The notes beneath the pieces are model-generated. The model made no database searches, was not told the origin of the DNA, and saw nothing but the letters and a program-made list of their open reading frames with translations. The translations under genes were made by a program, and so were the position numbers. Below are positions 3,751 through 49,428 of a DNA stretch of 64,000 nt, in pieces. The stretch comes from an uncultured Anaerolineaceae bacterium. Its GTDB lineage: Bacteria; Chloroflexota; Dehalococcoidia; Tepidiformales; Tepidiformaceae. Numbering within the stretch: position 1 is the first letter of the stretch; each line of letters starts with the position of its first letter. Location: positions 64,102 to 128,101 of the forward strand of contig CAZYLL010000007.1 of assembly GCA_964648195.1 (NCBI GenBank), given 5' to 3'.

Positions 3751-4937
3751 GGAACGCGGTAGGTCATGGCGAGACGGGCCAACGCGCGCACGTCCTTGAT
3801 CCGGTCTTTCGGCCGGAACGTTTCGCGGACCGAATGGAGGTTGCGCTCGCTGCCACCCCAGGGGAAGGCGACGGCGGGGATGCCCAGGCCGATCGGGATG
3901 TTCGCATCGGTCGAGGCGGGTCCGGTCCGGACGATGAGGCCCTCGGATTCGATGGCTTCGCGGGCGGCCACGACGAGGGGATCGTCCCACGGCGTGGCGC
4001 CGCCGGGCCGGTGGCCGAGGATCTCGGCGGTGTATGAAGACTCCCCGTCGACCGTGGAGGCGTACTCTTCATGGGCGGCGCGCACGAGCTCGAGGACGTG
4101 CGCGGCAGCGGTCTCGAGGCCTTCCGGTTCGACGCAGCGGAGGTCGAGCTCGAAGGAGGCGGATTCGGGGATCGCGTTGATCGACCGGCCGCCGGAGATG
4201 ACGCCGACGTTGTAGCTGGTGCGGGGCTCTGTGGGAGCCTTGTAGAGCGCGATCTTGCCGACAGCGAGGCCGGCGGCGTGAAGCGGGTTGTAGCGTCCGA
4301 AGTTGTCCCAGGCGTGGCCGCCGGGGCCACGGAAGGTGAAGCGGTAGCGGTAGCTGGCGACGCCGGTGTGGATGAGCGCGCCTCGGACGCCGATGTCGAC
4401 CGTGATGAAGGCTCCGATGCGCGGCCCCCATTCGCTGGCGAAGAGGTGGCGCGTGCCTTTCAGGTCGCCGATGCCTTCTTCGCCGACGACAGCTGCGAAA
4501 AGGATGCTGGAGGGGGTGAAGGCGGAGCGCGCCTGGAGAGCTTCAATCACGCCTGTGACCGAGGCCAGGCCGGCGGCGCAGTCGGAGACGCCGGGGCCGT
4601 GGTACTCGCCTTCGGGGACGACGCCTGGCGTTTCGCAGTAATCGCACCAATCGCCAGGGCGGCGGACGCGCACATCCTGTTCGATGGGGAAGACGGTATC
4701 GAGGTGGGCGGAAATGACCAGGACAGGCTCATCCTGCTGGCCCGGCCTGAGGGCGAGGACGTTTCCGGCGCCGTCGATGTGGGGGTCGAGACCGGCATCG
4801 CGCCAGATCTGAGCGACGACCCCGGCGCGGCGGCTCTCATCGAAGGTTGGCGCGGGTGTTTCCGCGTAACGGAGCTGCAATTCAAGCAGCCGGTTTTCGT
4901 TGAGGTGTGCGAGGACCGGTGCGATGGCATGGTTCAT
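3735..4937 (-). CDS. M20 family metallopeptidase (ArgE/DapE/PepT-like)
   Basis: It shows M20 blocks ISAHLDTV, GVSDCAAG and VVGEEGIGDLKG. The start was re-picked at MNHAIAP (ATG 4937) because the track ORF extension overlaps moaC. Confidence 0.8.
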   Translation of the reverse strand: MNHAIAPVLAHLNENRLLELQLRYAETPAPTFDESRRAGVVAQIWRDAGLDPHIDGAGNVLALRPGQQDEPVLVISAHLDTVFPIEQDVRVRRPGDWCDYCETPGVVPEGEYHGPGVSDCAAGLASVTGVIEALQARSAFTPSSILFAAVVGEEGIGDLKGTRHLFASEWGPRIGAFITVDIGVRGALIHTGVASYRYRFTFRGPGGHAWDNFGRYNPLHAAGLAVGKIALYKAPTEPRTSYNVGVISGGRSINAIPESASFELDLRCVEPEGLETAAAHVLELVRAAHEEYASTVDGESSYTAEILGHRPGGATPWDDPLVVAAREAIESEGLIVRTGPASTDANIPIGLGIPAVAFPWGGSERNLHSVRETFRPKDRIKDVRALARLAMTYRVPQLTR

Positions 4938-47387: not shown

Positions 47388-48401
47388 TTACGCATCGAAG
47401 ACACGCTGCAATTCGTAGGGGACGGCAGCCTCGAACTGGTCGAACGTGCAGGTCCGCGGGGGCTTATCGGTGCGCCAGCGTCTGAAGGTGGCTGCGTGGC
47501 GGAAGCGGTTGTCCTGAAGGTAGTCAAAGGAGACTTCGCAGACGAGTCCGGGGCGGAGGCGCACCCAGGAGAGGTCCTTGCCGCCTGTCCAGCGGCTGGG
47601 GGCGCCGGGGGTTCTTCCCTGGCCGAACGATTCGGCTTCGTCTTCGGAGCGGTAGGGCGCCAGGAAGGCCACCAGGTCGCGTTTTTCGCTGGCGCTGAAG
47701 CTGGAGGTGTGACCGACGTGGTGGAAGAGGCCATCGTCGCTGTAGAGGCCCAGCAGGAGGGAGCCGACCGATTTGCCCTCTTCGCCACGGTGCCAGCGAA
47801 AGCCGCCGACGACGCAATCAGCGGTGCGGAGGTGCTTGATCTTGGCCATGACGCGTTTGCCCGGCTGGTAGGCATCGGAAAGCTTCTTTGCGATGACGCC
47901 ATCGAAGCCGGCGCCTTCGAAGCGTTCGAACCAGTCGAGCGCAACCGCGCGGTCAGCGGTGGCGGGGGTGAGGTAGGCAGGGGGGGAGACGTGTTCGAAG
48001 TAACGCTCGAGGCGGGCGCGGCGCTGGGCAAGGGGGGCCGTGAAAAGGTCGTCGGCGCCATCGCGGAGCATGTCGAAGGCCACAAAGGCGGCAGGCGTTT
48101 CGCGGGCGAGCATGCGGACGCGGGATTCGGCGGGGTGGATGCGCATCTGGAGGGCATCGAAGTCGAGGCCTTTCGGTCCCATGATGACGATTTCGCCGTC
48201 GAGGATGGCGGGGTCAGGGAGGGCGGCGGCGAGGCCGCCGACGAGTTCGGGGAAGTAGCGGGCGAGGGGCTTGAGGTCACGCGACTGGAGGTAAGGCGGC
48301 GAAGCGCCATCGTAGAAGACGATGCAACGGAAGCCATCCCACTTCGGTTCGTAGAGCCAGCCATCGCCCGCGGGGATTCCGGGCGTGAGTTTGGCGAGCA
48401 T
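47388..48401 (-). CDS. ATP-dependent DNA ligase (stand-alone LigD ligase domain / LigC-like)
   Basis: It has MLAKLTP..GWLYEPKWDGFR (adenylation Lys motif), GFDGVIAKK and an OB-fold C-terminus. The start was re-picked at ATG 48401. Confidence 0.88.
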   Translation of the reverse strand: MLAKLTPGIPAGDGWLYEPKWDGFRCIVFYDGASPPYLQSRDLKPLARYFPELVGGLAAALPDPAILDGEIVIMGPKGLDFDALQMRIHPAESRVRMLARETPAAFVAFDMLRDGADDLFTAPLAQRRARLERYFEHVSPPAYLTPATADRAVALDWFERFEGAGFDGVIAKKLSDAYQPGKRVMAKIKHLRTADCVVGGFRWHRGEEGKSVGSLLLGLYSDDGLFHHVGHTSSFSASEKRDLVAFLAPYRSEDEAESFGQGRTPGAPSRWTGGKDLSWVRLRPGLVCEVSFDYLQDNRFRHAATFRRWRTDKPPRTCTFDQFEAAVPYELQRVFDA

Positions 48402-48498
48402 GGGAGCGATGGGGGATGGGGGTTGCGAGCCGGGCACGCAGGGATTGTGGCGTAGCCAGAAGCGAGTTGCGAGTTTGCCTCTCTCGCAAGCGCGAAGG

Positions 48499-48969
48499 CT
48501 ACTTGTCGGAGGAGACGGCAGGGAGGCGGAGGCAGTGCTCGCTCTTGCGGCAGAGTGGGACGGGGGGCTGGAGGTTGGGGTCGGGGATGCACTGGGGGTC
48601 CCAGGTCTGGACGAAAACGGGAGTGATGACGGTGCCCTTGAGGGCGGGATCGAAGGCGTCGACGAAGGTGGTGGAACCGCCGTATTCGATCCGGAGGGCG
48701 TTGGATACCTCTCCGCTCTCAAGGACGCCCGTATCGAAGAAAGGTGGGTCTTCGGGGAAAAGGCTCGGGATGATGATGCGGCGGGGCTGGTTGCCGGCGT
48801 TCTTGAAGCGGACGTACTCGCGGTTCATGCGGCAGATCGGGGGGTTGAAGCCGGCCTCGCTGACCTCGATGGTCTGGACTTCGTAGGCGCGCGGGGCCAA
48901 CGGCGGCGCGAGCGCCTGGGCCAGCAGGGCCAATGCGCAAAGGGGGAGGAAGATGCGGCGAGCAGACAC
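48499..48969 (-). CDS. secreted hypothetical protein
   Basis: It has a GTG start and a signal peptide MSARRIFLPLCALALLAQALA, and the mature part of ~130 aa contains 4 Cys. I recognise no family. Confidence 0.55.
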   Translation of the reverse strand: MSARRIFLPLCALALLAQALAPPLAPRAYEVQTIEVSEAGFNPPICRMNREYVRFKNAGNQPRRIIIPSLFPEDPPFFDTGVLESGEVSNALRIEYGGSTTFVDAFDPALKGTVITPVFVQTWDPQCIPDPNLQPPVPLCRKSEHCLRLPAVSSDK

Positions 48970-49010
48970 GTGCGAAGCCTACGGGGCTGCCGGGCTTTCC
49001 GCACGTGCGG

Positions 49011-49396
49011 GGACAAGCAAACAGGCCCCGGTAACTCGCGGGGCCTGTTGGTTTTCGAACTCCTCCACCGGGTACCGGGCGGTGCGCCGGTGGAGAGTGG
49101 CCGCTGGTTGGTGGGGGCTCTTTCGTATCCAGTGCCGCTCCTTGGAGGAGCGATCCGGGTCGCGCCTGCTTCGTGCAGGGCTTCGTGCGACCGGGCATCA
49201 CCAGTGAGGACTCTTGGGATACGCGCCCTCAGCGGCCGCCGTGCCTGGCCTGCCTGGTGCAGGCCTCATTTCTGCACAATGAAGACTCCGTAGACGGCGT
49301 GCAGCTTGCTTCGCATACGCTTACCTCCGTCCAGATGGCGACTTGCCCGGGTTCCGCTCCCTCTTCAGGAGCGGGGGCTTCGTCGCAGGTCTCACC
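49011..49396 (-). ncRNA. candidate structured non-coding RNA or long riboswitch-type leader (class unassigned)
   Basis: This is about 380 nt with no credible ORF. It is bounded by a near-consensus promoter and a terminator. Several perfect local hairpins are present (CCGCUCC/GGAGCGG, GGCCUGC/GCAGGCC, CGCUCC/GGAGCG). Confidence 0.45.
49020..49049 (-). terminator. intrinsic-terminator-like hairpin
   Basis: A 10-11 bp GC-rich stem aacaggcccc/ggggcctgtt is followed on the minus strand by TTTGCTTGT. On the plus strand it is followed by GGTTTTCG, so it may work in both directions. Confidence 0.6.
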
Positions 49397-49400
49397 AGTC

Positions 49401-49428
49401 ACATTACTCCGGCGGGGAGGGTTGTCAA
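49401..49428 (-). promoter_or_regulatory. sigma70-like promoter, TTGACA-16 nt-TAATGT
   Basis: The minus strand reads cTTGACAaccctccccgccggagTAATGTgactgg. Confidence 0.55.

Follow-up and report, generated by a model that had tools for sequence, protein, structure and literature searches.

The window, that is, the whole 64,000-nt stretch of DNA that we analysed, comes from a genome that shares its genus with Ca. Amarobacter glycogenicus (Tepidiformaceae, Chloroflexota). On its minus strand, ahead of a gene for a secreted protein (48499-48969), a unit can be read from the sequence at 49428-49013, which runs from a promoter through a hairpin-rich stretch of ∼385 nt to a terminator and encloses a micro-ORF. 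The features on which the analysis turns are as follows.

49401-49428, minus strand: putative promoter, with the −35 box TTGACA at 49428-49423, a 16-nt spacer and the −10 box TAATGT at 49406-49401
49338-49386, minus strand: 5′ leader domain, an outer helix GCGA/UCGC around the hairpin CCGCUCCU-GAAGA-GGGAGCGG (49374-49354)
49324-49328, minus strand: Shine-Dalgarno site GGAGG, 7 nt upstream of the ATG at 49316
49266-49316, minus strand: micro-ORF of 16 codons and TGA, MRSKLHAVYGVFIVQK, with the ATG at 49316 and the stop codon at 49268-49266
49241-49265, minus strand: hairpin GGCCUGC-ACCAG-GCAGGCC (49265-49247) directly after the stop codon, then a conserved AGGCAC
49095-49246, minus strand: 3′ multi-helix domain closed by the long-range helix GGCCGCUG/CAGCGGCC, with the inner helices GGGC/GCCC, CGUAUC/GAUACG, CCGGUCGC/GCGACCGG, CUGC-ACGAA-GCAG and UCGCUCC/GGAGCGG (49153-49135)
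49059-49098, minus strand: long 3′ hairpin ACUCUCCACCGG...CCGGUGGAGGAGU with the conserved apical sequence CCGCCCGG
49013-49048, minus strand: putative intrinsic terminator, ACAGGCCCCG-loop-CGGGGCCUGU (GC stem of 10-11 bp, 49048-49021), then UUGCUUGU
48976-48981, minus strand: −10-like box TAGGCT of the secreted-protein gene, 6 nt before its GTG at 48969

An earlier note on this DNA had proposed a structured non-coding unit here, and the location, the minus strand, the TTGACA-16-TAATGT promoter and the terminator that it described all stand, with both signals conserved in relatives. CTTGACA and a TAnnnT box are present at fixed spacing in 26 of the 27 aligned homologues, the exception being L055, which has TTGCAA. 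A simple promoter scan left the promoter at 49428-49401 unflagged because TAATGT agrees with TATAAT at three of six positions, and conservation in relatives is the better evidence for this promoter. Transcription would start near 49396-49393. At the other end of the unit, the stem of the terminator (the 3′ tract after it is also given as TTGCTTGT) is the same in sequence in 27 homologues, and its innermost pair and loop are variable. The possibility that the terminator is a dispersed repeat was rejected, since its sequence occurs once in the genome of the window. Structure alone should matter for such an element, yet the 10-bp stem (49021-49048) is invariant in sequence across genera, and this invariance points to sequence-specific recognition, either by a protein or by base pairing.

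The composition of the region had been said to differ from that of its surroundings. This is true of the strand skews alone (GC skew near 0, AT skew −0.25), which depart from those of the flanking minus-strand genes, whereas the G+C content of 0.61-0.68 is similar to the flanks. The unit folds better than its dinucleotide shuffles, with z = −4.1 for the minus strand and −3.4 for the plus strand, in agreement with the structured nature that had been claimed for it. A self-contained structured RNA gene of ∼385 bases with its own promoter and terminator is supported by the sequence, and we infer that it is transcribed separately, from a sigma-70-type promoter to an intrinsic terminator.

Micro-ORF and peptide

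The earlier note saw no believable ORF in this interval, a statement that does not survive comparison with relatives: the 16 codons behind GGAGG (49316-49266) show a coding-type substitution pattern, and the micro-ORF is the most conserved part of the element. Its 34 distinct DNA versions give only 9 distinct 12-residue cores, with the consensus KLHA[V/L/F]YGV[W/F/L]IVQ, against 14-24 distinct versions, or stops, in the other five frames over the same segment. The variable columns at codon positions 1, 2 and 3 number 5, 3 and 9, respectively, and the differences are mainly synonymous third-position changes, with alternative codons for Leu (CTG/CTT/CTC), His, Ala (GCC/GCG/GCA), Tyr, Val and Ile, a change of the Gly codon from GGA to GGG in L093 (genus g19) and a change from ATT to ATC in other genera. 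Because these synonymous changes become amino-acid changes in the complementary frame, the coding strand is the promoter strand. The micro-ORF of L013 has an in-frame insertion of 3 nt, and an ATG and a Shine-Dalgarno site are present in every micro-ORF examined, with GGAGG, GGAG or GGGGG kept 6-9 nt ahead of the start codon. Some members of the ORF set came from searches with residue-fixing patterns, and the apparent conservation of the set is therefore partly built in by construction; the first 20 loci, retrieved by blastn with the whole region as query, show the same coding-type pattern. The synonymous bias, the in-frame indel and the retention of the Shine-Dalgarno site and ATG are comparative evidence that the small ORF is under purifying selection, and conservation of the peptide exceeds that of the neighbouring proteins. 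Hence the description of the unit as non-coding has to be given up: the earlier note had itself named a conserved small protein in relatives as an argument against its finding, and such a protein is encoded there.

Selection within the ORF seems to go beyond the peptide. The codons AAG, GTG and CAG are invariant across the 34 versions, and GGA is likewise constant apart from the single GGG that was later seen in L093; moreover, rare A/T-ending codons (GGA, ATT, CTT, TAT) are preferred in a genome of ∼65% G+C. The invariant codons together with the rare ones point to an overlapping constraint at the RNA level inside the ORF.

The RNA would be translated into a peptide of 16-21 residues, whose core is rich in beta-branched and aromatic residues and has a hydrophobic portion of ∼10 residues. 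Judged by its sequence, the peptide is too short, and its ends are too polar, for a membrane helix, and it probably acts by binding a protein partner. Pfam and NCBIfam scans with five versions of the peptide returned no match. The peptide is retained in L055, L057 and L059 despite a differing nucleotide context. L055 and L059 each have two tandem micro-ORFs of related sequence, each with its own GGAGG, which read MIHGVRIHALYGVWIVQR and MKHRIHVWFGVFFGPV in L055 (∼4190-4340, plus strand) and ...RRLHALYGVWIVQI and MKLRVHAFYRRWFRPI... in L059. The latter locus is a second copy in the same-genus genome G017 (C32:16494-16523 region), which has both the one-ORF and the two-ORF type.

Structure and covariation of the surrounding RNA

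A consensus structure was computed by RNAalifold on a 23-sequence alignment, A2, and has 103-105 pairs in 16-19 helices. Paired cells amount to 87-89%, compared with 35-43% when the partners are slid by 1-3 columns. Compensatory changes occur in 49-50 pairs (229-235 cells), and none of 500 column shuffles (0/500) reached the observed values, so the comparative alignment that the earlier note had proposed as a check bears out a structured RNA with covarying helices. Several U-G pairs are conserved, such as 274-292 (23 of 23 sequences), and are compatible with the minus strand alone. By this comparison, the RNA around the micro-ORF is also under selection.

In the 5′ domain (consensus helices 1-3), where the loop UGAAGAG of the hairpin at 49374-49354 is conserved, five of the eight pairs of the inner hairpin and four of the five pairs of the outer helix are compensatory. 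The hairpin after the ORF (A2 columns 148-169) is paired in 99% of cells and includes two compensatory pairs; in most relatives, the stop codon lies within the loop of this hairpin. The main helices of the 3′ domain have compensatory changes in 7/8, 6/6 and 3/8 of their pairs, of which the 7/8 belong to the long-range helix that closes the 150-nt domain (49231-49224 with 49106-49099) and the 6/6 to CGUAUC/GAUACG, and the helix UCGCUCC/GGAGCGG (49153-49135) can still be made out in the members that diverge most. A covariance model of this domain, R1 (152 positions, 41 bp), scores 144 bits on the copy in the window. The long 3′ hairpin is the local fold in each of the 23 homologues, and 12 of its 16 pairs are compensatory; its column-wise pairing is 67% because the alignment shifts in that stretch. 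Thus, three of the four hairpins that the earlier note had picked out by eye are conserved and covarying (49374-49354, 49265-49247 and 49153-49135), and the fourth, CUUCAUU/AAUGAGG, proved to be specific to this genome and to lie inside the ORF.

The helices that touch the Shine-Dalgarno site and the ORF are of another kind, as their predicted pairs are invariant and so without covariation support. One predicted pairing joins GUGC in the ORF to GCAC, and neither side varies. A pairing of GGAGU in the ORF with an invariant ACUC was downgraded, since ACUC closes the local long hairpin in every homologue. The post-ORF hairpin (GGCCUGC/GCAGGCC) and the terminator (CAGGCC.../...GGCCUG) have complementary hexamers in common, and a switch of the attenuation type between them was considered; it was rejected, since each of the two hairpins varies independently of the other (L008, L019, L035, L043).

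No known family accounts for the unit. When the whole window was searched with cmscan against Rfam 15, no model reached its gathering score, and at E ≤ 10 the segment 48600-49900 gave chance-level snoRNA-like matches only, so the unit keeps the unassigned class that it had been given. RNase P RNA, tmRNA, SRP RNA, 6S RNA and the ydaO/c-di-AMP riboswitch (RF00010, RF00023, RF00169 and RF00013 were among the models tested) have no match at the unit. The first three lie elsewhere in the genome, with 293, 138 and 76 bits, respectively, and these identities were therefore rejected, as they had been before from the absence of their hallmark strings; 6S RNA was not found anywhere in the genome. The loose resemblance to c-di-AMP (ydaO) riboswitches that had been pointed out gains no support from the covariance model. 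The unit matches no described RNA or protein family in Rfam, Pfam or NCBIfam.

Distribution and neighbouring genes

The 451-nt region is present in 19 of 23 genomes of the same genus and in a second genus, and it is single copy in the genome of the window. An exact-pattern scan of all species representatives gave 26 true loci, all in metagenome-assembled genomes (MAGs) of Chloroflexota, and two chance matches in one Bacteroidales genome. The R1 model matches 32 of the 71 sampled genomes of the family, in 15 of 34 genera and once per genome, and all 16 of the matches inspected have the small ORF ∼70 nt upstream. The comparison thus shows a conserved unit, present once per genome, in which the ORF and the 3′ domain occur together. 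A degenerate peptide pattern had no match among ∼398 other Chloroflexota genomes, nor did a reversed control pattern. From the genomes compared, the element is found almost only in Tepidiformaceae. Several near-complete genomes of the family match neither the 3′-domain model nor a stricter peptide pattern (for example, none of four in g22), and the element is therefore not essential.

Two divergent loci separate the peptide from the 3′ domain. L093 (genus g19) has the small ORF with a diverged 3′ domain, in which the AUCGC...GCGGCA hairpin is kept, and L057, from one genome of another family, has the small ORF with an unrelated 3′ part. Because the peptide outlasts the 3′ domain in these lineages, it is probably the primary product, and the diverged 3′ domains weaken a dual-function reading of the RNA.

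In two genera, most genomes have the secreted-protein gene downstream of the element. In eight relatives (L008 and L011-L017), the terminator is separated from the secreted-protein gene by a small converging gene, and distant loci have unrelated flanking genes (Nudix and UbiA-like, CopC-like, SDR, MFS, EthD-like); downstream of L029, L035, L047, L055 and L057, the genes are unrelated or convergent. The comparison therefore shows that the unit is independent of its neighbours. The secreted-protein gene of the window has the box TAGGCT and no Shine-Dalgarno site, and GTAGGCT recurs ahead of the homologous gene in relatives; its mRNA is probably leaderless and made from its own promoter. The differing neighbours at distant loci and this separate promoter argue that the unit is neither a leader nor a riboswitch. 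The secreted protein lacks both a Pfam domain and a PDB relative, and so gives no functional clue.

Several minor observations concern these neighbours. The converging ORF, which is conserved in the eight relatives (for example, L011 ∼1810-1980), encodes ∼45-60 residues with a hydrophobic C-terminus, ...LIILIF, and is absent from the window; where it is present, the palindromic RNA terminator could serve both the RNA gene and the converging ORF. Many relatives have, after the secreted-protein gene, a diverged tandem paralogue of it at 32-45% identity (as in L011, 2165-2545 and 2760-3038), which is also absent from the window. The longest ORF of the ATP-dependent DNA ligase (47388-48722, minus strand) opens with TTG at 48722 and has 224 nt in common with the secreted-protein gene. 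Homology of the ligase to its relatives starts only near residue 81-84, and the true start is therefore probably ∼240 nt further downstream.

Explanations and relation to known systems

We consider the unit to be a micro-protein gene that is new, specific to this lineage and set within a conserved structured RNA, possibly with a dual function, and we put the probability of this reading at roughly 0.75. A free-standing Tepidiformaceae gene would be transcribed from a sigma-70-type promoter to an intrinsic terminator, giving an RNA of ∼385 nt, and a strong Shine-Dalgarno site would drive translation of a peptide of 16-21 residues. In the fold of this transcript, the hairpin domain of the 5′ leader would be followed by a hairpin next to or around the stop codon, then by the multi-helix domain of 150 nt and, towards the 3′ end, by the long hairpin. 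These structures probably control the stability of the RNA and translation of the micro-ORF, and they may add a second activity at the RNA level, which would make this a dual-function RNA. The covarying structure outside the ORF, together with the invariant synonymous sites, bears indirectly on a possible RNA-level function separate from coding. We infer transcription and translation from sequence comparison, as we do any role of the peptide and any trans-acting role of the RNA.

The same conserved positions could be read in the opposite direction, with the unit as a purely non-coding structured sRNA and the ORF as a by-product of RNA-level constraint on an invariant single-stranded or paired segment. 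The lack of synonymous change in AAG, GTG and CAG (with the one later exception for GGA), the use of rare codons, the strong covariation in the rest of the RNA and the ability of the ORF segment to join the helices UCUAYGGAGU/AUUGUGCAGA, GUGC/GCAC and GGAGU/ACUC would all fit such an RNA. However, RNA-level constraint of this kind does not explain why third-position variation preserves the peptide (9 peptides from 34 DNA versions, compared with 14-24 in other frames), why an insertion of 3 nt stays in frame, or why the ATG and the Shine-Dalgarno site are kept everywhere at a spacing of 6-9 nt. The changes from GGA to GGG and from ATT to ATC in other genera, the survival of the peptide within differing nucleotide context in L055, L057 and L059 and the existence of a tandem second small ORF likewise speak for coding, and we regard a non-coding RNA as very improbable. 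A module like those of type I toxin-antitoxin systems, in which a stable structured mRNA would encode a toxic peptide that is held untranslated by folding or by an antisense RNA, agrees with the structured mRNA of ∼400 nt, the tiny ORF, the strong and possibly sequestered Shine-Dalgarno site, the strong terminator, the patchy occurrence in the family (15 of 34 genera) and the second copy in some genomes. Yet the hydrophobic core of ∼10 residues is too short for a membrane helix, and the alignments display no conserved antisense promoter or second conserved transcript. Moreover, a single-copy locus with conserved synteny in two genera is unlike typical type I loci, and the predicted pairing of the Shine-Dalgarno site is invariant and lacks covariation support, so this explanation is also quite improbable.

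The riboswitch-type leader that the earlier note had kept as an option, or a leader-peptide attenuator, would govern read-through into the secreted-protein gene. A short ORF, hairpins and a terminator ∼45 nt upstream of a gene on the same strand are what such a leader would look like, and this gene does follow the element in most genomes of two genera; against this stand the converging gene that intervenes in L008 and L011-L017, the unrelated or convergent downstream genes of L029, L035, L047, L055 and L057, and the conserved −10 box GTAGGCT that the secreted-protein gene has of its own, 6 nt before its start codon. In addition, the whole 12-residue core is conserved, rather than a few regulatory codons, and no riboswitch model matches, which leaves a leader highly improbable. 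A more elaborate version of a coding and structured RNA would make the ORF and the fold one translation-coupled device, in which the invariant codons (GGAGU, GUGCAG) pair with the 3′ part, the stop codon stands at or in the next hairpin and passage of the ribosome, or its stalling on the nascent peptide, remodels the 150-nt 3′ domain and so switches an RNA-level activity; alternatively, the peptide would bind its own RNA as a small ribonucleoprotein. We think this unlikely; if true, it would add a type of riboregulator that has so far not been described for Chloroflexota.

For a micro-protein gene within a structured RNA, the closest functional class may be the dual-function sRNAs, if the RNA fold provides a second function. 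Examples are SgrS/SgrT, RNAIII/delta-haemolysin, SR1/SR1P, Spot 42/SpfP and AzuCR/AzuC (reviewed in PMC12310071 and PMC12612679). Like these, the element appears, here from its sequence, to be transcribed on its own over a few hundred nucleotides, between a promoter and a terminator that belong to it, and its very small ORF, behind a real Shine-Dalgarno site, is of about the size of that for SpfP, the peptide of 15 amino acids encoded by Spot 42 (PMC8916003). RNA structure is conserved outside the ORF, and the peptide and the RNA are both conserved, as are the peptide and RNA parts of SR1 across its homologues (PMC3526287). Unlike these sRNAs, to which it has no homology in sequence or structure, the element lies in the phylum Chloroflexota, and its structured part, a stretch of ∼230 nt that includes a closed multi-helix domain, exceeds that of most of them in size. 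No base-pairing target is known or predicted for the element, and the regulatory half of a dual function is accordingly hypothetical. The mRNAs of type I toxins (hok, ibs, aapA1, tisB) are similar to it in their length of ∼400 nt and their high degree of structure, in their tiny ORF and long-range helices and in the stable hairpin of their terminator; they differ in that the present peptide is no transmembrane helix, the alignments revealed no antisense partner and the locus is single copy and syntenic.

Micro-proteins of fewer than 20 residues and their RNAs escape routine annotation, and to our knowledge almost none are known beyond Proteobacteria and Firmicutes. The element offers a clean comparative case in Chloroflexota, with a highly conserved peptide inside an RNA that has ∼50 covarying base pairs. 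It is also a new gene to annotate in Tepidiformaceae genomes, and it may be accessible to bench experiments if cultured Tepidiforma species carry it.
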